A DNA stretch of 24,000 nucleotides, taken from Nitrososphaerota archaeon (GTDB lineage Archaea; Thermoproteota; Nitrososphaeria_A; Caldarchaeales; Calditenuaceae). The notes under the pieces are model-generated. The model searched no databases. It was given only the letters and a program-made list of their open reading frames with translations, and had not been told where the DNA came from. This document shows, piece by piece, positions 2,645 through 24,000 of this stretch (within the stretch, counting starts at the first letter, position 1; every line of letters begins with the position of its first letter). The position numbers were made by a program, and so were the translations under genes. Where the stretch lies: the NCBI GenBank assembly GCA_041641295.1, contig JBEPYO010000001.1:1102808-1126807 (forward strand), written 5' to 3'.

Positions 2645-2652
2645 GACTCTTC

Positions 2653-3027: not shown

Positions 3028-3034
3028 CTCGCGC

Positions 3035-3349
3035 TCACCCTGTGGATAAAGGTTTAATATGCTCAGGCAGAACGTGTAGCTTCTTCAACTTACCTCCCAG
3101 CTCGACCTCTACCACATACCCTCTACCTCTCCGCTCCACGACACGACCTACCCTCCCTTGGTATCGCCTATGCGGCATCCCCTTATGAGTTGACGGGTCA
3201 ATATCTATGGCAACGGCCTGACCTATCTCGTACTCTTGGAGGTATACCTCTGGCCTCGGCCCACTTCTCGCACCTACCTCCCTAGTAAAGAGCCTCCTAG
3301 TCCTATGTCTATATCCGCTATGCCTAGTCAACCCTCCTCCTCTACCCAT
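3035..3349 (-). CDS. rpl21e: 50S ribosomal protein L21e
   Basis: 104 aa, very basic. SGYRHRTRRLF and ...GMPHRRYQGRVGRVV... are the hallmark L21e blocks. Confidence 0.92.
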   Translation of the reverse strand: MGRGGGLTRHSGYRHRTRRLFTREVGARSGPRPEVYLQEYEIGQAVAIDIDPSTHKGMPHRRYQGRVGRVVERRGRGYVVEVELGGKLKKLHVLPEHIKPLSTG

Positions 3350-3364
3350 GTAGCAGATGAAGCC

Positions 3365-3374
3365 CTATATAAAC
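3365..3374 (-). promoter_or_regulatory. TATA box (GTTTATATAG) upstream of the rpl21e operon
   Basis: TTTATATA lies ~20 nt before ATG 3349. The spacing is slightly short. Confidence 0.4.
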
Positions 3375-3469
3375 AAGGAGGACTTGTAATAGGGCCAAGG
3401 TGCAAAATCCTATTTTAGACCCAACTATGTTTGGGTTGTCTCAGCATTAGTAAGACCGATAGATGCTGG

Positions 3470-4834
3470 CTATTTTGAATGGTGTAGCGTCTTGAGTACG
3501 CCGAGGAATTTGAGCCTTATGCTGGTGGGTGGGTTATCTAGTATCTCTGCTATGCTGGGCCTGGTTCTGCCAGAGTCTCCGTGTATGAGTTCCTTAACGT
3601 ATAGTCCGCCGTCAGCTTCAACGTAGAACTCGACCGTGTATGAGTCTATGAGCCTTGACTCTATGTTGAGGATCCTCTTTCTCCTTAACTTCTCTCCCCT
3701 TCTCTTCAGGACTCGGGTGGGTGTTTGCTGCTCTATAACAGCTCCTCTGAGGGAGGCTTCAAGCCTAGCTAGGTCCTCACGGCTCACCGGCTTAGAAAAC
3801 TGGACGGTGGCCATGTAACGCTTGGTAGACCCCTCTATCGCCTCCTTAAGCATCTTTAGGTCGTTGTGTGTGGCGGGCTTAAGTCCCTCAACCTCCACCC
3901 GCCCCTCCGAGTAACTCTTTACCGCCTCTTTCAGGGCTTCGAGGGATACCTTCCTCCTCCGAGGCATTATCAACTCGACTATGAATGGGCGTCCCGTACC
4001 CTCTACTGTCACGTCAACATCCTCTCTCCCAGCGGCATGGAACTTGTATCCAATGGCGCCTGCCAGCCGCATGGCAGGCTCACCAACATACTCGGCCACC
4101 GAGTCCGGATACACTCTTCCGCGGCCTCCGCACCTATCACACCCAGCTCCCCAGCAGGCCGAGCAGTACCAAGGTGTCTGTGGGATGTCTGCCCTGCTCT
4201 TGAAGTAATGACCATAGATGTACAGTGGAGCGGGCTTGGCCTCGGCTGTCCCCGTAAATATGTCGACTAGTATGAGCATCTCAGGTGAGGTGAAGTTGGC
4301 CGGCTTCCCCAGCGCCACCTCCAGCTTCTTCCCCACCTCTCTCGCAACCTCTTTCCTCAGAGTCTCCGACTCGGTGAGACCGAACTCCGAGAATATCCGC
4401 TCCTCGATCGCGGCTATGTATTTGGGTACATATGCGCCGACAAGGAAGTCCTCAAACTCATAGCCTGAGACCTTCCTGACCGCCTCTGCCACGACTGTCT
4501 CGACCACCTCGTCTGTAAGCCTGTCTAAGCAGATTGGACATGTTTTCTTCTCGACCTCTAGTCCTCGGCCAAGCGCGACATCCAGCGCCGGCCCATACCC
4601 TGACTCTGATAGGGCTTTAACAAGAGTCTCGGCTTCTTCTGGGTTCTGGTCTAGCAGGGAGCGAGCCTCCTCCAAGAGCGCCGCCTTAATATCTTCACCT
4701 GTGTTGAGAAGTTCGGAGCTGGGCCGGTTTGAGGATAGGAGCCTACCTAGACATTTGCTGCAAAGCCGGTATTTTAGAAGGATCTGCTTAGCCTTTGAGA
4801 GCGTCTCGTTCAAATTCTTTACGCCCCAGCCCAA
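3470..4834 (-). CDS. pus10: tRNA pseudouridine(54/55) synthase Pus10
   Basis: N-terminal Zn-ribbon cysteines (CSKC, CPIC), a second Cys cluster YCSACWGAGCDRCGGRGRVY, catalytic block AAGREDVDV...GTGRPFIVEL, and C-terminal GGLYVKELIHGDSGRTRPSIAEIL. The start is TTG at 4834; an alternative TTG lies at 4813. Either overlaps the srp54 stop. Confidence 0.88.
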   Translation of the reverse strand: MGWGVKNLNETLSKAKQILLKYRLCSKCLGRLLSSNRPSSELLNTGEDIKAALLEEARSLLDQNPEEAETLVKALSESGYGPALDVALGRGLEVEKKTCPICLDRLTDEVVETVVAEAVRKVSGYEFEDFLVGAYVPKYIAAIEERIFSEFGLTESETLRKEVAREVGKKLEVALGKPANFTSPEMLILVDIFTGTAEAKPAPLYIYGHYFKSRADIPQTPWYCSACWGAGCDRCGGRGRVYPDSVAEYVGEPAMRLAGAIGYKFHAAGREDVDVTVEGTGRPFIVELIMPRRRKVSLEALKEAVKSYSEGRVEVEGLKPATHNDLKMLKEAIEGSTKRYMATVQFSKPVSREDLARLEASLRGAVIEQQTPTRVLKRRGEKLRRKRILNIESRLIDSYTVEFYVEADGGLYVKELIHGDSGRTRPSIAEILDNPPTSIRLKFLGVLKTLHHSK

Positions 4835-6137
4835 GGAGGAGGTCCCGCGGCATCCTGCCGGCGCTACGCTTCAGCGTCTTCATCAGCCGCCTAGTCTCGT
4901 TATACCTCTTGATTAGTTGTTTAACATCCCTTTCAGTCACGCCTGCGCCCCTCGCGATTCTTCTGGCCCTCGACGAGTCTATTATTGCAGGGTCTCGCCT
5001 CTCCTCGGGTGTCATAGAATTCACCACTGCCTCCCACTTCTTCACCTGCTCCTCAAGCCCCTCAATGTCTATCGACTTGGCCTTGGGGAGTGGGAGCATT
5101 GAGAGGAGTTTGTCGAGAGGCCCCATCTTGGCGACCTCTTTCAACTGGTTTATCATGTCGGTGAGCGTGAATCGCCCACTCATCATCTTCTCCGCCGCGT
5201 CCTCGGATATACTCACCTCTGCGAGCTTCACCCTCTCAACGAGGCCGGCTATGTCGGGCATGCCGAGGAGCCGCGCCAAATATCTGTCGGCTGAGAATGT
5301 CTCTATGTCTTCTAGGTGCTCTCCTGTCCCTATGAAGCGGATGGGTGCGCCTGTTGCAGCCACTGCCGAGAGCGCGCCGCCCGCCCTAGCTGATGTGTCC
5401 ATCTTCGTTAGCATAACCCAGCCAATCTTGGCTACGCGGTTGAACGCTTCGGCTTGGCTCCTCGCCCTCTGTCCGATGGTTGCGTCCAGTACGAGGACAA
5501 CCTCATCCGGACTCAGTACCTTTAGTATCTCTTCCATCTCCTTCATCAGCGAGTCTTGGTCTTTATGCCTGCCCGCCGTGTCGACTATTATTACGTCCAG
5601 ACCCATTGACTTTAGTTTCTCTATGCCCCGCCTCGCTATCGCGGTGGGGTCTGAGGAGTCTGCCTCCCCATAAACGGGGATGCCCTTGTCTTGGAGGAGT
5701 TGTTGGAGCTGTATGAAGGCTGCGGGCCTATAGGTGTCTGCGCAGACAACCCCTACCTTATACCCGTGCTTTGCCAAGTAGTATGAGAGCTTGGCGACGC
5801 TGGTTGTCTTCCCAGAGCCCTGTATGCCGACCGTCACCAGTACGTGCGGCTTGCCCCTAGGCTTGTAGGGGGGCTGGACACCCCCTAGAAGCCTCACTAG
5901 CTCTTCATAGAGTATCTTGAAGATGTGGTCCCTTCTTGAGACTCCCGGTGGCGGCCTAGTCTCGGCTGCTTTTCTCCTAATATTCTCCGAGAGCTCCATG
6001 ACCAGCTCAACACTCACGTCTGCGGAGAGCAGAGCCCTCTGAATATCCCTGATAAGCTCCTCGAGGGCCTCCTTATCATGTGAAGCCTGACCCATGAAAC
6101 GGGAGACCGCCTTTCTGAGAGCCTCACCTATATCCAT
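4788..6137 (-). CDS. srp54: Signal recognition particle protein SRP54
   Basis: N domain, then a G domain with GIQGSGKTT, DTAGR and TKMD, and a Met-rich C-terminal M domain (KMMSGRFTLTDMINQL...MGPLDKLLSMLP). Confidence 0.95.
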   Translation of the reverse strand: MDIGEALRKAVSRFMGQASHDKEALEELIRDIQRALLSADVSVELVMELSENIRRKAAETRPPPGVSRRDHIFKILYEELVRLLGGVQPPYKPRGKPHVLVTVGIQGSGKTTSVAKLSYYLAKHGYKVGVVCADTYRPAAFIQLQQLLQDKGIPVYGEADSSDPTAIARRGIEKLKSMGLDVIIVDTAGRHKDQDSLMKEMEEILKVLSPDEVVLVLDATIGQRARSQAEAFNRVAKIGWVMLTKMDTSARAGGALSAVAATGAPIRFIGTGEHLEDIETFSADRYLARLLGMPDIAGLVERVKLAEVSISEDAAEKMMSGRFTLTDMINQLKEVAKMGPLDKLLSMLPLPKAKSIDIEGLEEQVKKWEAVVNSMTPEERRDPAIIDSSRARRIARGAGVTERDVKQLIKRYNETRRLMKTLKRSAGRMPRDLLLGLGRKEFERDALKG

Positions 6138-6175
6138 CCCGCAGCCCCCACCCTACAAACTCAAGCCCCCACCCA

Positions 6176-6185
6176 GATTATAAAG
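6176..6185 (-). promoter_or_regulatory. TATA box (CTTTATAATC) upstream of srp54
   Basis: Lies ~44 nt before ATG 6137 and is followed by a G/T-rich leader. Confidence 0.4.
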
Positions 6186-6310
6186 CCAAACAACCCACAC
6201 AGCGCGCCACCACCAGCCAATAAACACGATGAGCTTTATCTCGGAGCACGTTAACTCATAAGACTAGGCGATGATGTGGGACTCAGGAAGGATAATACCT
6301 GATGAATTCT

Positions 6311-6330
6311 CCTGGGGTATCTGAGCCCTT
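6311..6330. repeat. Direct repeat copy 1, CCTGGGGTATCTGAGCCCTT (candidate attL)
   Basis: 19 of 20 nt identical to 7631-7650 in the same orientation (15 nt exact, 1 mismatch, 4 nt exact). Confidence 0.6.
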
Positions 6331-6368
6331 TTGGGATTAGTTCTCTTTTTCTCCATTATTATGAAGAC

Positions 6369-6378
6369 ATAAATAATA
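6369..6378 (+). promoter_or_regulatory. TATA box (ATAAATAATA) for the thermonuclease gene
   Basis: Centred ~24 nt before ATG 6397. Confidence 0.45.
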
Positions 6379-6396
6379 TGGGACTGGGTTATTGGT

Positions 6397-7029
6397 ATGC
6401 GGCCCCAGTTATTGCTGGTTGTTGGCTTGGTTGTCGGATTGCTTATTGGAGGGGCGGCGGGTGTAGGTGCGGGCGCTTCTAGGGCGACCACTGTTTTGAG
6501 CACAGTCGAGGTTGTTAAGACCCAGCCAATCACATTGACGACTGAGGTTGTCCGCATCTCTACGGTTTCTACAGAGGTTTTGAGGCCGACAACCATTCTA
6601 AGCACAGTAGTCCAGCAGACAACGGTTGTAAAGACTACCACTATCGGGGTAGTGGTCATAGGTGGGAAACCCGTGGACTTGGTGGCGAGGGCCTATCATG
6701 TGGTTGATGGGGATACTTTTGACACATTTCCATCCGGCCGGGTTAGGCTGGCTGATATAAACACTCCTGAACGGGGTCAGCCAGGATACTCGGAGGCCAC
6801 CAATGCCCTGCGCATACTTGTCTTAGATAAGACCGTCTACCTCGACGTAGATAATGTAGAAGTTATGGACAGCTACAATAGGCTCGTGGCCCTCGTATAT
6901 GTTGACTACAACTCAACACACGTCTTAAACGTAAACCTTTGGCTGGTTGTCAATGGGTATGCCGTATTCGCCGATTTCGCGAATGAGTTTAATCCGCAGG
7001 AGTGGAGCCTCTACGTGAGAAAAGACTAG
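6397..7029 (+). CDS. Membrane-anchored secreted thermonuclease (staphylococcal-nuclease/SNase fold) with a Thr/Val-rich stalk
   Basis: N-terminal TM or signal anchor MRPQLLLVVGLVVGLLIGGAAG, followed by ~60 aa of T/V-rich repeats. The SNase core reads VVDGDTFD...VRLADINTPE...YNRLVALVYVD...LNVNLWLVVNGYAV. Confidence 0.8.
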   Translation: MRPQLLLVVGLVVGLLIGGAAGVGAGASRATTVLSTVEVVKTQPITLTTEVVRISTVSTEVLRPTTILSTVVQQTTVVKTTTIGVVVIGGKPVDLVARAYHVVDGDTFDTFPSGRVRLADINTPERGQPGYSEATNALRILVLDKTVYLDVDNVEVMDSYNRLVALVYVDYNSTHVLNVNLWLVVNGYAVFADFANEFNPQEWSLYVRKD

Positions 7030-7165
7030 CCCTATTTCTTTAACAACTTCTGCAATAGCTCTGCAAGTCTCTCTCAGCCTTTATTTCGCTTGATAGCTCG
7101 CTTACCTGGGTTAAGGTTTCCCTTATGTCGACCAATATGTTGCGCCTCTCAGCTCCTCGTAGAGC

Positions 7166-9444: not shown

Positions 9445-10683
9445 ATGTCACGGGATGTGGCATCTAGGGTTCCCCAGCAGATTGCTGAGGCGGCTTGCTC
9501 CTTGGTCGCTACACCTATAGTTGGGCAGGGGGCGGGCGGAGGTCTGCAGCTGTCTCCATCCGATAAGGCCACTTGGCTGCAGGGGGAAGGTGGGGTAAAG
9601 AAAACTCAGCGAAGACTAACACTAGAGGAGAAGGCTAAAGTCTTAGAAGCCATTAAAATTGGAGTTGAGAGGGGCTATGGGTACGGACGGATTTGGAAGA
9701 CGTTGAAGGCGAGTGGGATGGATGTATCGAAGAGGACTGTCGAGTACTGGTATTACAAGAAATATCGGGGAAAGGTTGGAAGAAGAGGAGAATATCTCCC
9801 AAGAGAGCTGAGAATCAGGTTATATGAAGAAGCCCTGAAGATGAGAAAGGCAGGTCTTGGATACAAGAGGATTAGGAAGAGGATTGAAGAGCTGCATGGA
9901 GTCAAGCTTAGTCCTGCCGTGATTGCTGACTGGTGCAGTGGAGCACACAGCCCATACAACGGTGCAAGGATCCCCACGATAGACCATCTAAAACCATCCC
10001 CGGAGCTCGCCTACGTAATAGGCGTGGTCGCCGGTGATGGGTGGGCGGTCAAAACCAACGCAAGGAGTGGAGAGTATAGGGTCGGAGCTAGGGCAAAGGA
10101 CATTGAATTCATAGAGGAGTTCGCGAGATGCTTGGGAAAAGTTCTCGGCAGAGAGCCGCCGAGGCCGGTACCAGTGGAAGATGGGTTGCTTTTAGTATAT
10201 GTTAGATCGAGGGCGCTGTACCAACTTTTACAGAAACCCATAGACATAGACAGGATAAGACGCTTCATAGAGCACTGCGAAGACTGCAAAAGAAGTTTTC
10301 TTAGAGGATTCTATGATAGCGAGGGATCTGTAGATAATGAGGGGAAGATTCGCTGCTTAAATACAGATACTAGACTTCTCAGATATGTACAGAAACTTCT
10401 GAAGCTTCTAGGCATAGAGACAACAGGGCCAAAAATCAGTGCGAGGAAGGGAACCCTCCTATTCGACAAAAAGTTGGGGGAGGCATACAAAAAGAGAAAG
10501 AATGTATACTACATCTATGTCAAAGCGCGGGATAAATTGAAATTCTACAAACTAGTAGGGTTCACCATAAGGCGAAAGCAACAACGCCTCGAAGAATATG
10601 TAAGATGTCACGGACTTCTAGAGGACGAGCCACCCAACCAACTCTTCCCCAATTCTCTCTTCCATTCAATTCGCTCACATTAA
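9445..10683 (+). CDS. Free-standing double-motif LAGLIDADG (I-DmoI-like) homing-endonuclease homologue with two N-terminal helix-turn-helix modules
   Basis: Motif 1 LAYVIGVVAGDGW and motif 2 FLRGFYDSEGSV keep both acidic catalytic positions (D, E). These are preceded by two similar ~50-aa HTH-like modules (LTLEEKAKVLEAIKIGVERGYGYGRIWKTL... and LPRELRIRLYEEALKMRKAGLGYKRIRKRI...). The start is uncertain: ATG 9445 opens a GC-rich, low-complexity 50-aa extension. Confidence 0.8.
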   Translation: MSRDVASRVPQQIAEAACSLVATPIVGQGAGGGLQLSPSDKATWLQGEGGVKKTQRRLTLEEKAKVLEAIKIGVERGYGYGRIWKTLKASGMDVSKRTVEYWYYKKYRGKVGRRGEYLPRELRIRLYEEALKMRKAGLGYKRIRKRIEELHGVKLSPAVIADWCSGAHSPYNGARIPTIDHLKPSPELAYVIGVVAGDGWAVKTNARSGEYRVGARAKDIEFIEEFARCLGKVLGREPPRPVPVEDGLLLVYVRSRALYQLLQKPIDIDRIRRFIEHCEDCKRSFLRGFYDSEGSVDNEGKIRCLNTDTRLLRYVQKLLKLLGIETTGPKISARKGTLLFDKKLGEAYKKRKNVYYIYVKARDKLKFYKLVGFTIRRKQQRLEEYVRCHGLLEDEPPNQLFPNSLFHSIRSH

Positions 10684-10686
10684 CAG

Positions 10687-10779
10687 TGGGCCCGGAGGGA
10701 TTCGAACCCTCGACCTTCCGGTCTCTCCCGCCATACCTGTTATCAGCCGGACGCTCCAGCCAGGCTGAGCTACGGGCCC
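10687..10779 (-). tRNA. tRNA-Ile(GAU): tRNA-Ile (anticodon GAU) with an 18-nt intron at the canonical 37/38 position; CCA not encoded
   Basis: Hand-folded cloverleaf: acceptor GGGCCCG/CGGGCCC, D arm GCTC-AGCCTGGCTG-GAGC, anticodon stem TCCGG/CCGGA with loop CTGATA[intron]A, variable AGGTC, T arm GAGGG-TTCGAAT-CCCTC, discriminator A. 75 nt mature plus 18 nt intron. Confidence 0.9.
10723..10740 (-). other. tRNA intron (ACAGGTATGGCGGGAGAG) after position 37
   Basis: This insertion interrupts an otherwise perfect anticodon stem-loop. The boundary is ambiguous by 1 nt because of flanking A residues. Confidence 0.8.
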
Positions 10780-14547: not shown

Positions 14548-15534
14548 TTACTCATCATTCTCCTTCTTGACTTCTCCCCTTATCATTGAAAGTACAATAG
14601 CAGCAAACAGGATTGAGAATATAATTGATATTGACAACCATACTGGTATTTGGATGAACCGTGCTATGAGTATTTTTATTCCCAAGAAGAATAATATGCC
14701 AGCTAGGGCGGGCTCAACATACTTGAATCTAAACATTGTAATAGCTATTAGAGAGTAAAGGGCTCTCAGCCCCAGTATTGCGGAGATATTTGAAGTGTAT
14801 GCGAGGAAGAAGTTCGATGTAATAGCTATAACGGCGGGGATAGAATCGAACGCGAATATTATGTCTGATGTTTCAATTGCAAGTAGGGCTAGGAGGAGTG
14901 GAGTAAACATTAACCTATTATCCCCTTTTGAACGAACTATAAACTTGGCACCCTCATAATAGTCAGCTATTGGAAGAACCCTCTGAGCCATTTTTACTAC
15001 AGGGTTTCTTGAGGGATCTACTTTTACCTCTCCCACCCTCAGTAACTTATATCCCGCATACATCAATACAGCACCGAAGATGTATACGGTCCAGTGGAAT
15101 TGCTCTATCAGCCAAAGTCCTCCGGCTATGAATCCGGCTCTTAAGACGATTGCCGTAACTATTCCCGCATACAATACGATCGGCTGTACGCGTGGGAGGA
15201 CTGAGAAATAGCTGAAGATTAGTGCGAAGACAAACAGGTTATCCATGCTTAAACTCTTCTCTACTACGAATGCCGCATAGTACAATCCTAGAGAATGCAG
15301 CTTATCTTCTGGGGCTGCAAACCAGTATACAAACACGCCCCACATCAGGCCTACCGCTATCCATAAAGCAGACCAAGCTCCAGCCTCCTTATACGTCATC
15401 GCATGCTTTCTTCTAACACCTATAATCAGATCTATTGCTATGAAGACTAGTATGACTATGTGATATAGTTCCCAGAACCACGTGGGAACTTCTATCTGCA
15501 CCTGGGTTTGAAGCTCAGCGGGATCTAAGCCCAT
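14548..15534 (-). CDS. TerC-family integral membrane protein
   Basis: SLSMDNLFVFALIF and ETSDIIFAFDSIPAV, the paired TerC signature helices. Multi-pass and hydrophobic. Noticeably lower GC than its neighbours. Confidence 0.8.
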   Translation of the reverse strand: MGLDPAELQTQVQIEVPTWFWELYHIVILVFIAIDLIIGVRRKHAMTYKEAGAWSALWIAVGLMWGVFVYWFAAPEDKLHSLGLYYAAFVVEKSLSMDNLFVFALIFSYFSVLPRVQPIVLYAGIVTAIVLRAGFIAGGLWLIEQFHWTVYIFGAVLMYAGYKLLRVGEVKVDPSRNPVVKMAQRVLPIADYYEGAKFIVRSKGDNRLMFTPLLLALLAIETSDIIFAFDSIPAVIAITSNFFLAYTSNISAILGLRALYSLIAITMFRFKYVEPALAGILFFLGIKILIARFIQIPVWLSISIIFSILFAAIVLSMIRGEVKKENDE

Positions 15535-15557
15535 ATATTGTCAGCGGGGATGGTATG

Positions 15558-15578
15558 CTTTTAATTAATTTAAAAACC
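15558..15578 (-). promoter_or_regulatory. AT-rich TATA region for TerC
   Basis: The minus strand reads TTTTTAAATTAATTAAAAG, 25-45 nt before ATG 15534. This argues that TerC has its own promoter. Confidence 0.35.
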
Positions 15579-15592
15579 ATTCTTAATGGGCC

Positions 15593-16618
15593 CTAAAGTA
15601 TTCTGATATATTCCCTGCCAGCCCCCTCATATGAGCCTATAAGTATCTGTCTCCAAGCCTCCTCACCATTCCTCCGCGCCACCTCCAGCTTCCCATAAGC
15701 CTCGACAAGGTCACCCTCCCTCAAAACACCTGCCAACATCATGTCATAACACACAATCCTATCAATACTCCCACCCTCATCCTCCACGAAATACACCGCC
15801 GGCGTAAAGAGCGACTCCCGCACATCAACCACTCTGCCCCTCACCTTGGCCATCCCTAGAGTGGAGTAGACCACCTCGCCATACTTGTACACTGGAGCCT
15901 CGCGTACACCATGTACTGAGAAGGGCACTCCACTGAATACTCCCTTGTTTATGACGTTGGATGCGAGTCTGCGCAGGTCATGCGTTGATACCGGGTATCT
16001 TGACGAGGCCCGGATAACCCATCCCTCAGGATCGCTACCACCCAGTAAAGCCACCTCGCCCTCACGGTGCAGCTCCTTAAGCGCTTCAAGAACCCGCCAC
16101 AAATTATCCGTGCCATAGACCACCAAATCTATATCTGAATCCTGATGATGGATTGCGGGAAGGATCGACCCAGTAACGCCGAAGTGGTCTATAGGGACGC
16201 CGGAAACCTCTGTAAGCCTCTCAACGAGTGAGACTAGAAGTCTTTCAAGTCGATTGTTGGTGGGTCTGCTCAATAGCTCTTTGAGCCGCCTCTTAGAGCT
16301 GTATACTCTGGTAATGCTGCTGATGGGTGGTGCTATGACCTTAGCGCCGACGGTAGGATCGTGGAACACGTAGCCGGGCTGCCTCTCTTCTACGAAGTTG
16401 ATTATTTTTAGAAGCTCTGAAACCGTGTACTGTCGTATTACCCTGATGAATTTTTTCTCACCATTCCCCCAGATGCCATTACCTGGTACGTATTTGAGCA
16501 GGCTCCAAACCCGTCCCGCTGGATGAACGTCGCCTAAAACTAGGAAAATCCAGCCGTCAGTCGTCTCGAAATAGTCGTGGTCCCTTACTGACCCGTCGTG
16601 GCCTTCACTCTCCTGCAT
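15593..16618 (-). CDS. Pol-beta-superfamily nucleotidyltransferase with conserved N-terminal domain and C-terminal OB-like beta-rich domain (paralog 2), function unknown
   Basis: NTase signature GVTGS-x8-DSDIDLVV (G150-S151, D162, D164). Collinear similarity to the upstream paralog in at least 5 blocks. GGAGG sits immediately before the ATG, only 29 nt after the upstream gene. Confidence 0.65.
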   Translation of the reverse strand: MQESEGHDGSVRDHDYFETTDGWIFLVLGDVHPAGRVWSLLKYVPGNGIWGNGEKKFIRVIRQYTVSELLKIINFVEERQPGYVFHDPTVGAKVIAPPISSITRVYSSKRRLKELLSRPTNNRLERLLVSLVERLTEVSGVPIDHFGVTGSILPAIHHQDSDIDLVVYGTDNLWRVLEALKELHREGEVALLGGSDPEGWVIRASSRYPVSTHDLRRLASNVINKGVFSGVPFSVHGVREAPVYKYGEVVYSTLGMAKVRGRVVDVRESLFTPAVYFVEDEGGSIDRIVCYDMMLAGVLREGDLVEAYGKLEVARRNGEEAWRQILIGSYEGAGREYIRIL

Positions 16619-16647
16619 TCCTCCTTAAAACAGCTATCTTGGCGGAG

Positions 16648-17610
16648 TTATAACTGTATTTTACGCATAGCGTTTTCGGAGACGATATAATCGTCGGGTG
16701 TATTTCCGATGAATATTCTGAGCCTTCTCGTGACTAGGTCTATCTCTAGCCTTCCCCTCGCGGTGAAGCGTTCTCCAGCAAAAACCTGTTCTGCAAACCT
16801 CGACCGGTAGGACACCGCTTCTCCACACTTGTAGGCCTCTTCACCACCCTCAAGCACCTCTTCGACAGTGACCCGCAGCTTCATAGGCGTATAACAGCCG
16901 AGTGAGTCTTCCTCCACCACACCCCTCACCTTGACATATCCCAGCTCCCTCCACTTAGCCGTCCCCCATGGTTCCCAGAAATCCTCGGGCCGCTTCACAA
17001 TCTTGGCCGAATAGACCACTCCCCTGAAAAGACCGTACGTGGACTTCCTACCCTCGTGCACTAGCCAGACGTCGAGGCCAAGCTTAGAGTCTCTACGCTT
17101 TAAGGCCAGGTCTTGAGTGTGTTCCCGCGTCACGGCCCCTGTAACGCCACGGTCCCTGAGCTCTCTCAAGGCCTCTATGGCCCGAAGCCCCCTCGGCTCC
17201 ACCACGACTATGTCAATATCAGACCACCTCTTATGCGCCTTCAAGAGAATGGAGCCAGAGATTCCTATCGACTCGAGGGGAAGGCCACCTTCCTCCGAGA
17301 GGAGCCTCCCAAACTCCAAGGCCATGCTGGTCAACCGGTCAATTGGCTGAAGGTTTCTGAACCCCTCAAGCGAGGAGAGATACCTCTCCACACTCTCAAC
17401 AGGGATCTGGGGCAAAACCTGCCCCGAGTGGTCGTCGAAGATTAGCCAGCCCCGAACCCTGTCCTCTATGTAGGCATACACCTCCTCCAGAGTGGCCGCC
17501 CGTCCTAGACGGGGAAAAGCAACAACCTTTCCTGGAGGGTGTGAAACACCTTTAACAGCCATAAACCCCAGCTCGCCGACATAGATGTAGTCGCCTTCAA
17601 TCAAGCCCAA
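16648..17610 (-). CDS. Pol-beta-superfamily nucleotidyltransferase with conserved N-terminal domain and C-terminal OB-like beta-rich domain (paralog 1), function unknown
   Basis: NTase signature GISGS-x10-SDIDIVVV (G119-S120, D131, D133). The TTG start is supported by N-terminal similarity to paralog 2 (DYIYVGELGFMAVKGVSHPPGKV vs DYFETTDGWIFLVLGDVHPAGRV). Confidence 0.65.
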   Translation of the reverse strand: MGLIEGDYIYVGELGFMAVKGVSHPPGKVVAFPRLGRAATLEEVYAYIEDRVRGWLIFDDHSGQVLPQIPVESVERYLSSLEGFRNLQPIDRLTSMALEFGRLLSEEGGLPLESIGISGSILLKAHKRWSDIDIVVVEPRGLRAIEALRELRDRGVTGAVTREHTQDLALKRRDSKLGLDVWLVHEGRKSTYGLFRGVVYSAKIVKRPEDFWEPWGTAKWRELGYVKVRGVVEEDSLGCYTPMKLRVTVEEVLEGGEEAYKCGEAVSYRSRFAEQVFAGERFTARGRLEIDLVTRRLRIFIGNTPDDYIVSENAMRKIQL

Positions 17611-17629
17611 ATCCCATGATAGTGATGGG

Positions 17630-17638
17630 TTTTAAAAG
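17630..17638 (-). promoter_or_regulatory. TATA box (CTTTTAAAA) before NTase paralog 1
   Basis: Centred ~24 nt before the TTG start at 17610, inside the 62-nt gap after the kinase-like gene. Confidence 0.4.
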
Positions 17639-17672
17639 AGATAGTGTCGGAGCAATCACTCTATCCGCCCTC

Positions 17673-19283
17673 CTATCTTCTCAGCTCCCTCTCCACTGAC
17701 CTAAACATCCAGACCTGTGTCCAGATGGGTGTCCAAGGAAGCATGGTGAGCTGGTACTTGCTATCCAGGGCTCCCTCAACGACCTCGGGCCTGCCCTTCG
17801 ACAGATAACCCTTAGCAATTAGTGATGCATACCTCTCGGCATCTTCGGGGTCGAGATAGTGCCCCATATAGAGTATCAGTTCGGAGAGGTCCCAAGACTT
17901 GTTGCCCTTAAGAGAGGCCTGTTCTAAATCCACCAGCCACGTCTCGGATAAGGGCTGCGCAATCATGAAATTGTCGGGTTTACAGTCTCCAACCACTACA
18001 TCTCGCTCATGCACCTCAGCCAGCATTCTACCGACACCTATCGTTATCTCTTCTAGCCGTCTGTCTCCAATCCTTCCACGCTCACGAGTCCACGCCTCCG
18101 TCAAATTATATCCTCTGATTGCATTCTCAACTAGCACTTTATCACCCCAAGAGAGGTAAACAACACGTGGAACACGAAGCCCCTTCTCAGCCAAGTAGCT
18201 CAGGAAGAAGACCTCGTTACTCATCCTAGTCCCCGGTGAGAAGTAGAAGTTTCTCAGAGGCATGGCCCAAAGCTTGGCGGCGACCCATTTAATATCAGTC
18301 CAAGAGAAGTATCTCTTAACGAATAGAGCCTCTTTCGGGCTGCCGTCCACATATATTCGGAGGAGATAAGTCGAGTTTAGTATGGAGCCTTTCCTATCCA
18401 GCTTGACTTCGGCGTCCTCCAGTGAGAGGTGCTTTTTAATTGCCTCGATAAGCGGCTCGTCGCTTGAGATTGGTTGGAGGCCGTGGAAGGTCTTGATAAA
18501 GGCCCACTCCTCAGGCTCCATCTCAGCCAAGCTTGCAGGCGACTTTGGATAGGCCTCTGCGAGTAATAGCCTGAGCGCCCCGATCGCCACAGCAGGCTCC
18601 CTCACAACTCTTGTGACCTGGGGGTTGAATGGGAGCTTGAGTCTAGGCCTACTCCCGCCTAGGTGTCCCCGCATGACCTTTGAAGGGTTTAGGGCGTATA
18701 ATTCGCCGTCTTTCTGTAAGACCCCATCCTCCTCTCGGGATGACTCATCTAGGGCTGTCCTCAGCCGAGATATGACCGTGGATAGGTGTTTTTCGCGGAG
18801 GCCATTCTCGGCGTTTAGCCACCAGAAGAGCCGGGTCAGGCTCGGCATGAGCGCTAGTTTGGGTTTGATCCACCTCAACAGGAAGTAGAGGGGGTGTAGC
18901 CTCACGTGGATGGCGGCGAGCTCGTAGCTCTCGATGACTGTTTCTGTTACGCGCTTGATTACTCGCTTCAAGTAGTGGGACTGTAACTGGCTAATGACCT
19001 CTCCTCCTTGGACTACCTCGAAGGGTGTTAGGAGCCGTATCGCTAGGCTGTCGCCCAAGATGGAGGAGGAGACGTCTCTCTTCACAAACCCGAGTGGCGC
19101 TACTATCTCTCTGCGGCCGTCATCTACTGAGACTTCCAGTCCACGTCTCTCATCGCCGCTCATCGCCAACCGCTCAGCGATCACCGAGCCGTCGCTCTTG
19201 ACAGGATATTCAAGCACCGCGACTATTTTTTCTCCGGCAGAGCCTTCCCTTCTCCGCCGCGCCTCGCCATCCCGTTCCAGCAT
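17673..19283 (-). CDS. Atypical protein-kinase-like (ePK/RIO/Kdo-like fold) protein with ~290-aa uncharacterised N-terminal region
   Basis: The C-terminal ~200 aa carry beta3-Lys-like FVKRY, hinge LVENAIRGYNL, catalytic loop VVVGDCKPDNFMI (D433, K435, N438) and DFG-equivalent WLVDLEQAS. No classical GxGxxG loop. The N-terminal part includes a possible winged-helix segment (LSTVISRLRTAL...GVLQKDGELYALNP). Confidence 0.6.
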   Translation of the reverse strand: MLERDGEARRRREGSAGEKIVAVLEYPVKSDGSVIAERLAMSGDERRGLEVSVDDGRREIVAPLGFVKRDVSSSILGDSLAIRLLTPFEVVQGGEVISQLQSHYLKRVIKRVTETVIESYELAAIHVRLHPLYFLLRWIKPKLALMPSLTRLFWWLNAENGLREKHLSTVISRLRTALDESSREEDGVLQKDGELYALNPSKVMRGHLGGSRPRLKLPFNPQVTRVVREPAVAIGALRLLLAEAYPKSPASLAEMEPEEWAFIKTFHGLQPISSDEPLIEAIKKHLSLEDAEVKLDRKGSILNSTYLLRIYVDGSPKEALFVKRYFSWTDIKWVAAKLWAMPLRNFYFSPGTRMSNEVFFLSYLAEKGLRVPRVVYLSWGDKVLVENAIRGYNLTEAWTRERGRIGDRRLEEITIGVGRMLAEVHERDVVVGDCKPDNFMIAQPLSETWLVDLEQASLKGNKSWDLSELILYMGHYLDPEDAERYASLIAKGYLSKGRPEVVEGALDSKYQLTMLPWTPIWTQVWMFRSVERELRR

Positions 19284-19361
19284 CTTGCTATATCCATCAA
19301 TAGGGCTGCCGCATTACTAAATAAAGAGTCGCCGGCTCGTTAGCCTCTGTGGGGAGCGATT

Positions 19362-19394: not shown

Positions 19395-20729
19395 ATGGTG
19401 GGGGCGCGGCGAGTGGCTTTAGAGGCTTTGAGAACGGCGAAGAGGCTGGGGGCTACTGACGCGGCGGTTGACTTGGCGGACGTGACCATCTACATGATAC
19501 GCTTCTCAAATAATGAGATAACGGTCTCGAAGGTGTTTGACGAGTATGAGGTCTCGGTTTATCTGGCTATAGGTGAGAGGCGGGGGGTGGCCTCAACCTC
19601 TGTCCGCAGCCTCTCTGAGATAAAGAGGTTGATTGCGGGTTTGGCGGAGACTACTCGGCTGGCGGGGCCGAGTGATGTCTATGCGCCGCTTCCAAGGGGG
19701 CCGTTCAAGTATGATAGGGGGCTTCTCTCGCGGGGGAGGAGGGCTCCTCCACCGGAAGACGTTGTTGGGTGGGTTGAGGAGGCTGTTTCGGGGGCTAGGA
19801 ATAGTGGTGCTGTTCGGGTTGCAGGGTCCCTCATAGTGAGTGAGGTTCGTAGGACTCTCTACACCTCTGGTGGGGTTAGGGTAGAGTCTAGCAGTGAGAG
19901 GATTGAGCTGTCGGTTAGGGCTTTTCTAAATGGGGCGTCGAGTGGGCAGTTCTCTACTGCCACGGCTAGTAGGGAGGAGTTTAACCCCTATAAGACTGGG
20001 GAGATGGCGGGTGAGGTTGCGCGTCTGGCGAAGAACCCGGTGAGCGGTGAGCCGGGCGTGTATGACGCTATACTAGGCCCCATGACCTTCGCCAACATTT
20101 TAGAGGAGGTGGGGAGGGCGGCTTCAGCCTACAGCGTTCTCACGGGGCTCTCATTCCTAGAGGGCAAGATTGGTGAGTTGGTTGCGTCTAAAATCCTCAC
20201 GCTCATAGACGACCCTACACTACCCACCGCGTATGGCTCAGAGGCCTTTGATGATGAGGGGCTTCCGACCAAGCGTAAGGCGATAATAGAGTCTGGGGAG
20301 CTTAAGACCTATCTACACAATAGTGCGACGGCGAAGAAGTTTGAGACTGAGAGCACGGCTAATGCTGGATGGATATCCCCCGAGCCTTTCAACCTAGTCG
20401 TGGAGGGTGGAAGCGCCACGCTTAACCAGCTGTTATCAAAGGTTGATAGGGGGATCTTCGTTACCAATGACTGGTACCTTAGGTATAGGAACTTCAGGAC
20501 TGGAGACTTCTCGACTATTCCGCGCGACGGTCTCTTCCTAGTTAAGAATGGGAGTATTGAGGCTGCGTTGAAGGATCTGAGGCTGAGTGATAATATTTTG
20601 AGGATTATGAGGAATTTGGAGGAGATGACGGCGGATAAATACTGGATAAAGTGGTGGGAGGTGGAGGTCCCGGTGAGGGCGCCTTATGCTCTTGTGAGGA
20701 ATGTGAACTTCACGAAGTCCACTATTTAG
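19395..20729 (+). CDS. PmbA/TldE-family protein (peptidase U62 family, non-HExxxH member)
   Basis: 444 aa. C-terminal family block GIFVTNDWYLRYRNFRTGDFSTIPRDGLFLVKNGSI. No HExxxH metal site was seen, so it is TldE/PmbA-like rather than TldD-like. Confidence 0.75.
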   Translation: MVGARRVALEALRTAKRLGATDAAVDLADVTIYMIRFSNNEITVSKVFDEYEVSVYLAIGERRGVASTSVRSLSEIKRLIAGLAETTRLAGPSDVYAPLPRGPFKYDRGLLSRGRRAPPPEDVVGWVEEAVSGARNSGAVRVAGSLIVSEVRRTLYTSGGVRVESSSERIELSVRAFLNGASSGQFSTATASREEFNPYKTGEMAGEVARLAKNPVSGEPGVYDAILGPMTFANILEEVGRAASAYSVLTGLSFLEGKIGELVASKILTLIDDPTLPTAYGSEAFDDEGLPTKRKAIIESGELKTYLHNSATAKKFETESTANAGWISPEPFNLVVEGGSATLNQLLSKVDRGIFVTNDWYLRYRNFRTGDFSTIPRDGLFLVKNGSIEAALKDLRLSDNILRIMRNLEEMTADKYWIKWWEVEVPVRAPYALVRNVNFTKSTI

Positions 20730-20753: not shown

Positions 20754-21245
20754 TTAGAATTTGTAGCCTATTTTTCGGAGGAACTCTCTCCGCTCGCGTA
20801 TGTTTTGCTCGTTCTCGATTCCTTTGGGCTTGTAGCCGTCAACGACGCCTATTATTCCGCGGCCTTGGTCGGTCTCCGCTACTATTACTTGGAGTGGGTT
20901 TGCGGTTGCGCATAAGATGGTGCATACTTCGGGGACTTCTTTGAGTCTTCCAAGTATGTTGATTGGGTAGAGGTTGCGTGTGAATATTAGGAATGTGTGG
21001 CCGCATCCTATTTTGAGGAGGGTTTCGGCTGCGAGTTTTCTTAGTTCTTCGTCGGTTCCTTCGTGTCTGATGAGGCATGGGCCGCTGGCTTCGCTGAAGG
21101 CGAGGCCGAATTTTGCGCCGGGGACTGTGTTGACTATTGCTTCGTAGATGTCTTCGACGCTTTTTATGAAGTGGGTGATTCCGAGTATTGCGTTGCACCC
21201 CTCGGGAGTCTCGACTTTTATGACCTCGAGTTTGACGGTGCTCAC
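20754..21245 (-). CDS. Adenosine-specific kinase family protein (PF04008 / PAE2307-like)
   Basis: 163 aa, GTG start. Strongly resembles the conserved archaeal ~160-aa family (...[38 protein letters not shown]...A......GCGHTF.I......PIN.L..LK.VPEV..I.CATANP..V.VAET.QGRG..GV.DG...). Confidence 0.65.
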
Positions 21246-21742: not shown

Positions 21743-21953
21743 GGGGTTTATTGTAGCTGTTCGGTGTCTTAAAGGCTTGTGCTGGGGGTGTCTTGGCCTT
21801 TGGGGTGTTTTGCTGGGTGGTTTGGGGGTTTATATAGTGTTGTTTTTCGGGGTTTTGGCGGGTTTCTGCGGGTTGTTCTAGGGTTTGGAGTTGTCCTAGA
21901 ATGGATGGGTCTTTATGGTTGGGTTTGGGTTGTTTGGGCTGCGTGATTGGGAA
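21743..21953 (+). repeat. Extreme G+T-rich low-complexity tract with many G3-G5 runs (GGGTTT-like degenerate repeats)
   Basis: Hand count of 21781-21840: G27 T25 C5 A3. G-runs lie at about 21784, 21802, 21815, 21824, 21850, 21860, 21870, 21881, 21907, 21921, 21927 and 21936. Confidence 0.85.
21829..21837 (+). promoter_or_regulatory. TATA box (TTTATATAG) inside the G+T-rich tract, candidate promoter of the surface-protein gene
   Basis: The only A-containing AT box in the tract. It would give a G/U-rich 5' leader of ~55-95 nt, depending on the start codon. Confidence 0.4.
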
Positions 21954-24000
21954 ATGCCCGATAATAGTGGGCATAGTAAGTTAGGTGCGTTGAATGCGGC
22001 GAAGGTTGCTCTGCTGGTAGCGATGCTGATAGTGCCTGCTGTGCTGGTTGCAGTGCCAGTGATTCAGGCACAGACAACATACTCGGCCTGGCTGAAGCTG
22101 GTGACGACAAGCTGGAACGGACAGCCCTGTATAGCTGGCGGTACTCCTGCATGTGTTGGTGCGACTACTGGTTTTGCCGACAGGTATAATCTGACGGCGA
22201 ATTGGTATTGGGTTGAGGTGTATCATGAGAAGAGGGGAGCGCCGTTTAACGATGTTGTCTTTGCTGGGAAGTTCTATCCGAACGGTACAGGCTTTGTGCT
22301 GATTAGCTGGCCTGTGGATTGGCCTAACGTTACTGTTGTTGTGAAGGCTAAGAGCTATGATGGGACAGAGATCGGTGCAGGGACACTCTACGATGGAATA
22401 ATCGTGTACATGCTAGTGATCAACCCGACAGATGTCTATCTGAATGCGAAAACAGGATCAGGCTGGGGTGGCTTCTATTCGAGAATCATTGACATGACAG
22501 GTACTATCACTTCCTACCCCTTCTATAGGCCGACTGCTGCTGGCCCGGTTAACTTTGTGAGGATCTGGCCAAAAAGCTTCGCAGGGAATCATAGCCACCC
22601 TACCGCTGCCGATGCTTGGGTCGCTAACTCTTCAGTCATCTTCAAGCCCTTCCACGTTCACACATGGTACAGCGTCCTTGACAACCTGAGCTACGCCCAG
22701 GTAAAGATCTATGATATTAACCACACGGCCGCCGATAGTAGCGCCTCACTGCTCAGGGCGTTCGTTACTAAGGGTGATGGTAGCGGAAATAGCTTATACG
22801 ACCCGAGGACTACTGGCGAGATGTTCCCGGTCTACGGGACTAGGTGGAGGGATAACGAGCTCGTACCAATACCACTCCAAGCAATAAACCTCAACGCCAA
22901 GAGACCCTACAGTCAGAATTTACCAAGAGGTGGTGTAACTACTTATGCCCACCTTAACGCCACTGTAAGAGTGTGGTGGGAATCAGTACTGGTAAACACG
23001 ACATTCTACGTAGGGCCAGACCTAGCACAACCCAACCAGCTGGTAACTGTCAACTCAGGGCCGCCTCCAGTGGTCTATCCAGGTAACGACTTCCAATCAG
23101 CACAATTACCAACTATGCAGTCCCTCAGCATATATTACAACCACACTACACCAGTAAATCCTGCGGCTAGGCTGTATGACTATCTTAACGCCACCGTCTT
23201 CTACTGGAGGTGCGGCGCACGGGACGACGACCTACTCGTAAACGGCACCGACACATCCATTGGATGGGTCGGTTCCGCCCTATTCGACGCCCAGTGCATC
23301 GTCAACCTCAGAGACAAGAACTCGAATGTCTATCACACGCTACATGAGAGGGGTTCAACAGGACAAAGATGGGAAGTATCATCCACGCAGCTCACAGACT
23401 ACTATGCCTTATCTGATGATCCGCACGATTGGTCCGGATATCTCTCAGCATTTAGAGGATATCTTAGGGCTCCAAACGCTACTATGTGGACAGGCCTTTA
23501 CACCAAGTTCGCTGGAGTTACGATTGATGGGACAAGCGCGGCGGGCCTCATCTATGTCTCCAAATACTACAGCGGTACAGCCGACCTCACCCAAGACCCA
23601 TCACTAGTAGCCGTCAACGACTACCTCAAGACTAGGAGTATTGCAGACGACCCAGGCCCCTACAGGGGCATAAGACTCGAAGTCCAGTACGCAGGAGGCT
23701 ACAAGAACCTTTACGGAGGCCTCAAACAAACAGTAGGAGTCTACACACTACAAAACATATACCTAATTGCACTAAAGGATACTACACCTGCACCCGGTTG
23801 GGTAGACCCATTCGCCACAGCCATATCAGGCAACTACCCAGAAATACTCACGCCCTCTCCACTACGACAGATTAGGCTGGGTACCTCCGAGAACGGTGGG
23901 CCAATAGCCGGAATAGTCGATAGCAATACAGTAGAAAATGTTCCTAACCCCCCCGGTTCAGATAGGACCTTCGAGCGGGATGGTAAGCTGCTTGTCGTTG
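21954..24000 (+). CDS. Large secreted surface glycoprotein, putative S-layer protein precursor (3' end outside the window)
   Basis: The frame (positions = 0 mod 3) is continuously open from the stop at 21897-21899 to the window end, so it is missing from the ORF track. Signal peptide ...KLGALNAAKVALLVAMLIVPAVLVAVPVIQA/QT. About 13 N-x-S/T sequons occur in ~670 aa (NLT, NGT, NVT, NHS, NSS, NLS, NHT, NAT, NTT, NHT, NAT, NGT, NAT). Rich in aromatics, Thr, Asn and Gly. Alternative starts are ATG 21915 and TTG 21990. Confidence 0.7.
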   Translation, partial: MPDNSGHSKLGALNAAKVALLVAMLIVPAVLVAVPVIQAQTTYSAWLKLVTTSWNGQPCIAGGTPACVGATTGFADRYNLTANWYWVEVYHEKRGAPFNDVVFAGKFYPNGTGFVLISWPVDWPNVTVVVKAKSYDGTEIGAGTLYDGIIVYMLVINPTDVYLNAKTGSGWGGFYSRIIDMTGTITSYPFYRPTAAGPVNFVRIWPKSFAGNHSHPTAADAWVANSSVIFKPFHVHTWYSVLDNLSYAQVKIYDINHTAADSSASLLRAFVTKGDGSGNSLYDPRTTGEMFPVYGTRWRDNELVPIPLQAINLNAKRPYSQNLPRGGVTTYAHLNATVRVWWESVLVNTTFYVGPDLAQPNQLVTVNSGPPPVVYPGNDFQSAQLPTMQSLSIYYNHTTPVNPAARLYDYLNATVFYWRCGARDDDLLVNGTDTSIGWVGSALFDAQCIVNLRDKNSNVYHTLHERGSTGQRWEVSSTQLTDYYALSDDPHDWSGYLSAFRGYLRAPNATMWTGLYTKFAGVTIDGTSAAGLIYVSKYYSGTADLTQDPSLVAVNDYLKTRSIADDPGPYRGIRLEVQYAGGYKNLYGGLKQTVGVYTLQNIYLIALKDTTPAPGWVDPFATAISGNYPEILTPSPLRQIRLGTSENGGPIAGIVDSNTVENVPNPPGSDRTFERDGKLLVV

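Follow-up and report, generated by a model that had tools for sequence, protein, structure and literature searches.

Two adjacent minus-strand genes, here termed A and B, were analysed in a window of 24,000 nucleotides (nt) from a Nitrososphaerota archaeon (contig JBEPYO010000001.1), together with the neighbouring gene for a kinase-like protein of 536 amino acids (aa). A and B encode diverged paralogs of a nucleotidyltransferase (NTase) family, referred to as NT-OB, in which a Pol-beta-type core is combined with a C-terminal OB fold. On balance, we read the two as NT-OB enzymes that are produced from one transcription unit and serve methanopterin-type cofactor biosynthesis, likely with chemistry resembling that of CitX and MdcG, with the kinase-like gene standing apart as a separate unit. 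The window pair was placed in this pathway because the family is recurrently linked to genes of pterin and tetrahydromethanopterin (H4MPT) biosynthesis. The linkage of NT-OB to methanopterin synthesis appears to be new, whereas an NTase-fold transferase in the assembly of a cofactor or prosthetic group is of an already known kind. The best protein matches of the window genes were to the Caldarchaeales/Calditenuaceae, formerly 'Aigarchaeota', a lineage from which a Calditenuis member has been brought into culture (PMC12979851).

Genomic Context of the NT-OB Family

Members of the family were found in operons with, adjacent to, or fused to enzymes of pterin or methanopterin biosynthesis in at least six phyla. 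The loci of relatives were collected by scanning reference genomes with a hand-designed degenerate DNA motif; the scan was specific but not exhaustive, and the absence of cultured methanogens from its output carries no meaning. It returned 77 loci, mostly from Bathyarchaeia and Nitrososphaerota, with others from Hadarchaeota, Methanobacteriota, Altiarchaeota, one Asgard archaeon, one Methylothermaceae bacterium and several Actinobacteria. An NT-OB member was confirmed by hidden Markov model (HMM) in all but one of these loci, and two adjacent paralogs were present in most. An exhaustive profile search of 1.84 billion representatives identified 1,725 NT-OB clusters at E ≤ 1e-3, including 612 at E ≤ 1e-30.

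In 31 Bathyarchaeia loci, the 8 kb sampled included a CitG-family gene (PF01874, E = 1e-76). One arrangement was 'DUF447>CitG>A><B' and another was 'CitG< A> DUF447> GHMP/RFAP-synthase-like> DHPS-like(Pterin_bind+PterinBD-DUF4346)>'. The genes for Mch and formylmethanofuran dehydrogenase were often close to the CitG-linked loci. In Methylomicrobium, a homolog with 27% identity to B (E = 4e-30) is the first gene of an H4MPT island, where it overlaps a HAD phosphatase gene and is followed by genes for beta-RFAP synthase (TIGR00144 at 162.7 bits, above its cut-off of 113.5), an ATP-grasp protein, Mch, a RimK-like protein, CitG and Fae. The make-up of this island matches the published H4MPT island gene content, and the NT-OB gene is not included in that published gene list (PMC3615186).

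In the protein P0391, HPPK (E = 3e-40) is naturally and cleanly fused to a complete NT-OB module, and the P0391 gene is followed in two assemblies by genes for an AfpA-like flavoprotein and then a DHPS-like protein. At locus L041, the gene for an MptD-type dihydroneopterin aldolase (E = 2e-34) lies directly 5' of a tandem A-to-B pair. In the Asgard locus (L037), the NT-OB gene is divergent from the gene for GTP cyclohydrolase I, and a DHPS-like gene is close by. The divergent neighbour was a RimK-like ATP-grasp gene in Methanobacteriota and Altiarchaeota, and a CofC gene in Hadarchaeota (L031). A literature search found no publication tying the NT-OB family, or any NTase, to methanopterin synthesis.

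Archaeal members fell into two deep clades, A and B, in a rough neighbour-joining (NJ) tree. Window B clustered with the Bathyarchaeia B-type genes in clade B, and window A fell in clade A, where its sister group was the A-like genes of Bathyarchaeia that are linked to CitG, DUF447 and RFAP synthase. In this tree, the A/B duplication is older than the split between Bathyarchaeia and Caldarchaeales. The two genes have stayed adjacent, in tandem in Caldarchaeales and at L041, L055, L058 and L070, and convergently in most Bathyarchaeia.

Further family loci were observed alongside these. Two Bathyarchaeia loci carry more than two NT-OB paralogs, four in L004 and three in L014; the extra paralogs are clustered (2852-7047 and 1714-4873, respectively) and include two additional deep clades. 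A tight six-gene operon with the NT-OB gene in last place was present in a Methylococcales metagenome-assembled genome (MAG; L090, 1-5165). The preceding genes encode RibD_C-like, isocitrate/isopropylmalate-dehydrogenase-like, 5-formyl-THF-cyclo-ligase-like, Orn/DAP/Arg decarboxylase and flavin reductase proteins, and the operon may represent another uncharacterised cofactor sub-pathway. A conserved three-gene unit in Actinobacteria, seen at 4255-7436 of L059 (Thermobifida cellulosilytica) and in 8-9 other loci, comprises an APH-family gene, the NT-OB gene and a gene for a 386-aa protein. This protein contains a CxxC...CxxC zinc ribbon and was matched by neither Pfam nor NCBIfam models. An apparent 441-aa fusion of an NT protein with DUF447 in L017 was rejected, as the reading frame runs through a masked stretch of N (X in the translation).

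Sequence and Structure of A and B

The two genes and the elements belonging to them occupy the following positions in the window.

15593-16618, minus strand: NT-OB paralog B, open reading frame (ORF) of 341 aa, ATG start
15593-15946, minus strand: OB barrel of B, aa ~225-341, from the AlphaFold2 (AF2) model
16124-16180, minus strand: NTase motif of B, G-V-T-G-S ... S-D-I-D-L, aa 147-165, from family invariance
16620-16624, minus strand: GGAGG in the 29-nt A-B spacer, 1 nt ahead of the ATG of B, from the sequence
16648-17610, minus strand: NT-OB paralog A, ORF of 320 aa, TTG start
17206-17265, minus strand: NTase motif of A, G-I-S-G-S ... S-D-I-D-I, aa 116-135, from the sequence, the paralog alignment and family invariance
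17630-17637, minus strand: TATA-like box TTTTAAAA, ~24 nt 5' of the start of A, from the sequence

In other assemblies, paralog A was called as a protein of 318 aa that starts at the next TTG. A and B are true, diverged paralogs, with 26% identity across ~313 aa (BLASTP E = 4e-17). Only the generic NTP_transf_2 (PF01909) and Polbeta (PF18765) models recognised them, and weakly. The PF01909 scores were 20.4 bits for A and 15.1 bits for B, against a cut-off of 21. In a set of 54 family members, this model matched 52 at E ≤ 0.1, and the lowest E-value was 5e-7. The family HMM scored A at 220 bits, and a protein search with B returned 236 homologs. Neither protein was matched by an NCBIfam model or, in sequence and profile searches, by a PDB entry; the family has no Pfam or NCBIfam model of its own and no solved structure.

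The AF2 model of B (pLDDT 94.4, pTM 0.91) showed a beta-rich N-terminal domain, a Pol-beta NTase core (helix 123-139, strands 146-148 and 163-168), a helical linker and an OB barrel. For this model, all Foldseek matches were at the level of single domains. The best PDB matches were the OB domains of RPA and LysRS, there was no full-length PDB match, and the match of the palm to poly(A) polymerase was weak (1q78, E = 0.012, TM 0.18).

Twelve residues were invariant in 103 family members, comprising D15, H32 and P33 in the N-terminal domain, G147, G150, S151, S161, D162 and D164 in the core, and P273, E312 and G328 in the OB domain. G147, G150, S151, D162 and D164 were also invariant in a set of 54 sequences, and window A retains every family-invariant residue. 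The superfamily signature hG[GS] x9-13 [DE]h[DE]h is present in A and B on the helix-strand-strand core. Judging from these motifs, both proteins appear to be catalytically competent members of the Pol-beta NTase superfamily. They belong to none of the CitX/MdcG, CCA-adding/poly(A) polymerase, MNT or TiaS families.

An earlier analysis of the window sequence, referred to as the original prediction, had described A and B as diverged paralogs with an intact NTase signature and an OB-like C-terminus, and this description was borne out. It had compared them to class I CCA-adding, poly(A) and TUTase-like enzymes, a likeness that held at the superfamily level only, with weak poly(A) polymerase matches. 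Its statement that the cluster could not be assigned to a described system also stood, since the profile, PDB and NCBIfam searches gave no characterised family. The HHpred/profile, AlphaFold and Foldseek checks that it had proposed returned a Bud32 fold for the kinase-like protein and an OB fold for B, with no full-length PDB match for B.

Gene Order in Caldarchaeales

The three ORFs on the minus strand (536, 320 and 341 aa), separated by spacers of 62 and 29 nt, were verified in the ORF list and the sequence as the original prediction had given them. Its interpretation of the three genes as one co-directional module did not survive the comparison with relatives, and the window differs from them in the orientation of the following segment.

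15593-17673, no strand assigned: inverted segment of 2.08 kb with B, A and the 62-nt spacer, from blastn against relatives

The tandem order of A and B was kept across the Caldarchaeales (Caldarchaeum, HR02 and several other MAGs), with a gap of 29-42 nt or an overlap, which makes co-transcription probable. A and B probably form one transcription unit, as the original prediction had suggested from the GGAGG and the lack of a TATA box ahead of B. The box TTTTAAAA, already pointed out in the original prediction as a sign that the kinase-like gene may be transcribed separately, would likely serve as the promoter of a leaderless or nearly leaderless A-B transcript.

The kinase-like gene was convergent with B in 10/10 related loci carrying it, and divergent from the PmbA/TldD gene, which adjoins it in 8 loci. 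The convergent arrangement was found even in relatives with ~85% DNA identity. When the window was compared with four relatives (L023, L042, L005 and L081) by blastn, the flanks were collinear, comprising TerC at 14548-15582 and the kinase-like gene from 17668, and the segment 15593-17673 was reverse-complemented in the window. No inverted repeats of note were found at the borders of the segment. The co-directional arrangement recurred in two further independent assemblies and is therefore not a misassembly. The segment is a recent, lineage-specific inversion in place, and this inversion is the reason that the kinase-like gene is co-directional with A and B in the window. The conserved unit is the A-B pair, with the kinase-like gene as a separate transcription unit that has always had its own putative promoter region. 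As regards the adjacency of the three genes in other genomes, which the original prediction had singled out for counting, the kinase-like gene adjoins B in all 10 of the Caldarchaeales loci carrying it; it is not co-directional with the pair there, and it is restricted to this order. The syntenic block in Caldarchaeales runs A-B / kinase / PmbA / PF04008 / EamA. The apparent three-gene operon created by the inversion is a caution against inferring function from the gene order of one genome.

Two variants of the locus were also observed. In a Calditenuaceae/Nitrososphaerota subclade that lacks paralog A (L067, L021 and L071), a 492-aa gene lies directly 5' of B in the same direction (1966-3441, 3774-5249 and 2448-3923, respectively). 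It was considered as a divergent A and rejected, as its HMGL-like and LeuA_dimer domains mark it as a LeuA/citramalate-synthase-like gene; a similar gene lies near the NT-OB member in L087. In archaeon HR02, a TnpB/Cas12f1-like fragment (L005, 8009-8263) lies right beside the A-B pair where the contig ends, in the position occupied by the kinase-like gene in other relatives, and the kinase-like gene of HR02 is on a different contig from the pair.

The Kinase-Like Protein

The kinase-like gene and its surroundings are laid out as follows.

17673-19283, minus strand: kinase-like gene, ORF of 536 aa, ATG start
17673-18413, minus strand: Bud32/PRPK-like atypical kinase domain, from Pfam and from Foldseek on the AF2 model
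17970-17990, minus strand: catalytic loop G-D-C-K-P-D-N, aa 432-438, from the sequence
18414-19283, minus strand: N-terminal region, aa 1-~290, without a recognised match
19318-19325, minus strand: TATA-like box TTTATTTA, ~38 nt 5' of the kinase ATG, from the sequence, with a presumed promoter role
19395-20729, plus strand: PmbA/TldD-family gene, divergent neighbour of the kinase-like gene, context outside the NTase unit

The box TTTATTTA lies in the 111-nt divergent spacer that is common to the kinase-like and PmbA/TldD genes. Residues 328-466 of the protein matched the Kdo/WaaP family (PF06293) with 30 bits (cut-off 21.3), and the same match was precomputed in all 16 homologs. The match is at the level of the fold only and implies no role in lipopolysaccharide in an archaeon. 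The APH, RIO and Pkinase matches in Pfam were all below threshold. The AF2 model (pLDDT 84.3) gave PRPK, Bud32 or MJ1130 as the top 19 Foldseek matches (E = 1.8e-7 to 3e-5), and these were confined to the C-terminal ~250 residues. The sequence and structure searches gave no match for residues 1-~290.

The residues K323, E357, G432, D433, C434, K435, D437, N438 and D452-L453-E454 were invariant in the 16 homologs. The canonical Gly-rich loop was absent, and an invariant G299...N303-S304-T305 was present at its expected place. The features ascribed to this gene by the original prediction were therefore recovered, including the kinase fold, the GDCKPDN loop, DLE, the VKRY lysine, the missing Gly-rich loop and an N-terminus of ~290 aa that still has no match. 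All 16 homolog clusters were from Caldarchaeales/Nitrososphaerota. The family is confined to the Caldarchaeales, and the protein is a Bud32-fold paralog specific to this order.

Two more specific labels for the protein were rejected. The NCBIfam model arch_bud32 (TIGR03724) scored 37.9 bits against a cut-off of 125, and other Bud32 models were also far below their cut-offs. As the score is far below the arch_bud32 cut-off, the protein is not a KEOPS subunit, although one source labels it so; its length of 536 aa and the absence of Kae1 from the window also spoke against this label. An identity as an ArkI-like RNA kinase was likewise rejected. ArkI is an archaeal tRNA 2'-kinase with an ePK-like fold, a ~200-aa COG2112 protein with an HGQ catalytic loop and a DFE metal loop (PMC9095486). 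The corresponding motifs of the window protein are V-G-D-C-K-P-D-N and D-L-E, and TkArkI was not among its PDB sequence matches at E ≤ 10.

Other Features of the Window

Several features outside the A-B and kinase-like genes were recorded. A PF04008 'adenosine-specific kinase' gene (20754-21245, minus strand; E = 5e-74) adjoins the PmbA/TldD and kinase-like genes in six Caldarchaeales loci. An ORF of 412 aa (9445-10683, plus strand) encodes a LAGLIDADG_3 homing-endonuclease-like domain and ends 4 nt from a tRNA gene of 93 nt on the opposite strand (10687-10779, minus strand), which is above the usual length and may hold an intron. An open frame of 700 codons (21900-23999, plus strand) extends past the end of the window, and no repeats were seen in it. 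The seeming absence of listed ORFs in this region is explained by the frame leaving the window, and a CRISPR array or a non-coding region at 22-24 kb was rejected.

Proposed Function and Alternative Explanations

The side chain of methanopterin contains an alpha-ribosyl-5-phosphate that is joined to hydroxyglutarate by a phosphodiester. H4MPT is central to methanogenesis, anaerobic methane oxidation, the archaeal Wood-Ljungdahl pathway and formaldehyde oxidation in methylotrophs. To our knowledge, no genes have been assigned to the later side-chain steps (ribitol formation, ribose-phosphate addition and hydroxyglutarate attachment) since the biochemistry of the 1990s. The products of CitG and MdcB are used by the NTase-fold transferases CitX and MdcG, and we know of no other consumers of their 5-triphosphoribosyl glycosides.

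By analogy, a CitG-like enzyme would place a 5-triphosphoribosyl group on the ribitol of the cofactor precursor, and the NTase would take the triphosphate of this product as its 'NTP'. The alpha-phosphate would be joined to an acceptor hydroxyl, for instance that of (S)-2-hydroxyglutarate, to give the side-chain phosphodiester and pyrophosphate. A CitX-like reaction of this kind would fit the CitG, HAD, DUF447 and RimK-like neighbours of the family. As A and B both have intact active sites and are adjacent in two archaeal classes, they would probably act as a heteromer or in two consecutive steps. A functional tie of the kinase-like gene to the pair is possible. The recurring pairing of NT-OB and kinase-fold genes may leave room for a real link with the Bud32-like protein; the pairing is only convergent in Caldarchaeales, and it is translationally coupled in Actinobacteria, where the kinase family is unrelated.

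A more complete and more tentative proposal, which we regard as unlikely to hold as a whole, is that NT-OB is the missing enzyme of the methanopterin phosphodiester, a CitX analogue that would couple a 5-triphosphoribosyl-ribitol to (S)-2-hydroxyglutarate, with A and B forming a heteromer and the Caldarchaeales making a methanopterin-like cofactor, possibly with the involvement of the Bud32-fold kinase.

Several observations weigh against assigning A and B to methanopterin-type cofactor synthesis. Pterin and H4MPT genes, CitG among them, were absent from the window and from all Caldarchaeales loci sampled, and methanopterin was not mentioned in the literature searched on Aigarchaeota/Calditenuaceae. 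Some NT-OB members were found in unrelated contexts (L047, L088, L087 and L038). In 9-10 actinobacterial loci, the NT-OB gene was coupled by a 4-nt overlap to an APH-like kinase-fold gene (PF01636), and the actinobacterial lineages concerned are, as far as we know, not H4MPT users. At the protein level, no conserved acidic residue was found on the strand after the NTase core, leaving D15 of the N-terminal domain and E312 of the OB domain as candidates for the third carboxylate. The OB fold of B is of the anticodon-binding type, which is unusual in a small-molecule enzyme. Neither A nor B matched a CitX or MdcG family at E ≤ 1 in Pfam, nor in NCBIfam, and the exact reaction, a CitX-like transfer, is suggested by analogy only.

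The absence of pterin genes near the Caldarchaeales pair could also mean that the family serves pterin synthesis elsewhere and that A and B of the Caldarchaeales were recruited to another small-molecule pathway, in which the Bud32-fold kinase would phosphorylate a substrate that is then nucleotidylated or transferred. The kinase-like gene adjoins B wherever it occurs in these loci, down to 31% identity of the kinase, and the Caldarchaeales A sequences are on long branches in the NJ tree. As the APH gene that overlaps the actinobacterial NT gene is unrelated, the pairing of a kinase-fold gene with an NT gene would have arisen twice. However, outside the arrangement seen in the window, the kinase-like gene is convergent with the pair and not co-transcribed with it. 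The whole block from A-B to EamA is syntenic throughout, so the adjacency may be mere inheritance. The window kinase has hardly any similarity to the APH-like protein of Actinobacteria (hhalign probability 29%), and orthology between them was rejected on this basis. All family-invariant residues are also kept in A and B. We consider recruitment to another pathway unlikely.

The OB domain, with its closest matches in the LysRS anticodon-binding and RPA folds, would suit A and B as RNA- or tRNA-directed NTases (3'-end tailing, repair or base modification) in which it binds RNA, with the Bud32-like protein as an RNA-directed kinase or ATPase. The kinase domain is closest to Bud32/PRPK of the tRNA-modifying KEOPS complex, archaeal RNA kinases with an ePK-like fold exist (ArkI, PMC9095486), and weak matches to the poly(A) polymerase palm were obtained. 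The genomic context argues otherwise, as no tRNA- or RNA-processing gene was a conserved neighbour in any lineage, and the neighbours and the fusion partner were pterin/H4MPT enzymes. Accessory domains of CCA-adding, TUTase or TiaS enzymes were not matched in Pfam, PDB profiles or Foldseek, and the kinase-like protein lacks the HGQ and DFE motifs of ArkI and did not match it by sequence. The phyletic spread, including Methylococcales, follows lineages that we take to be one-carbon (C1)/H4MPT users, rather than a universal RNA function. A role on RNA, in essence the first option of the original prediction, is distinctly improbable. There is a very slight chance that the cluster functions in defence, as a toxin-antitoxin system or in nucleotide signalling, with MNT-like or CD-NTase-like NTases and the kinase as effector or regulator. 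Pol-beta NTases are common in such systems, and the kinase domain gave weak, generic matches to the PD-T4-6 kinase models in PADLOC; however, neither NTase was matched by PADLOC. A HEPN or effector partner was absent, the neighbours being TerC and the kinase-like gene, and the combination of an N-terminal domain with an OB fold is unlike MNT or CD-NTases. The genes show vertical inheritance with stable housekeeping neighbours across an order, and the TnpB fragment at one HR02 contig end was the only mobile-element context. Across the family, no RNA-processing or defence context was seen in the sampled loci or with PADLOC. The three roles raised in the original prediction, namely RNA-end repair, aminoglycoside-like modification and nucleotide signalling, gained no support from the genomic context, which was that of methanopterin-type pterin synthesis.

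With methanopterin-type cofactor synthesis as the preferred assignment, the NT-OB family, with roughly 1,700 clusters, offers a concrete and testable candidate for one unassigned step of the methanopterin side chain, and it is a possible target for inhibitors of methanogenesis. For annotation, the name 'Predicted nucleotidyltransferase' can be refined, and the 536-aa protein should not be named KEOPS Bud32.

Comparison with Known Systems

The pairs CitG-CitX and MdcB-MdcG function in the synthesis of the prosthetic groups of citrate lyase and malonate decarboxylase. NT-OB resembles them in that a CitG-family gene lies next to it in the 31 Bathyarchaeia loci and the Methylomicrobium island contains both genes. 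The proposed logic would also be shared, in that an NTase-fold transferase would use a triphosphoribosyl donor and release pyrophosphate. In contrast to CitX and MdcG, A and B were not matched by the models of these families and carry additional parts, namely a conserved N-terminal domain and the OB fold. Their acceptor is likely a small molecule, and not the serine of an acyl-carrier protein. The window pair and the Caldarchaeales loci also differ from CitG-CitX in having no CitG gene nearby.

The H4MPT gene islands (mptG, orf5, orf7/CitG-like, orf9, orf17, orf19/DUF447, DHPS-like, afpA, MptD and HPPK) share with the family the linkage or fusion to NT-OB that was seen in Bathyarchaeia, Asgard archaea, Methylococcales and others. 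However, none of their genes is in the window, and NT-OB is not listed among them in PMC3615186. With CofC and CofD of F420 synthesis, NT-OB may share, by analogy only, the formation of a side-chain phosphodiester via a nucleotidyl-activated intermediate, and CofC is its neighbour in the Hadarchaeota locus; however, CofC has a MobA-like NTP-transferase fold rather than a Pol-beta fold and no sequence relation to A and B.

Among NTases, A and B share the hG[GS] ... [DE]h[DE]h motif and the PF01909/PF18765 similarity with minimal NTases, class I CCA-adding enzymes and poly(A) polymerases. They differ from the CCA-adding enzymes and poly(A) polymerases in lacking the accessory domains of these enzymes, and their N-terminal domain and OB fold are specific to the family. 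Unlike MNT-HEPN systems, they have neither a HEPN or effector partner nor a match to a defence model.

The C-terminal domain of the 536-aa protein shares its fold with the Bud32/PRPK and Kdo/WaaP/RIO kinases (Foldseek E = 1.8e-7, with the Pfam Kdo threshold passed). Bud32 of KEOPS is a small protein of ~200-230 aa that is fused or adjacent to Kae1. The window protein, in contrast, has an unmatched N-terminus of ~290 aa, no Kae1 neighbour or fusion, and D-L-E in place of D-F-G.

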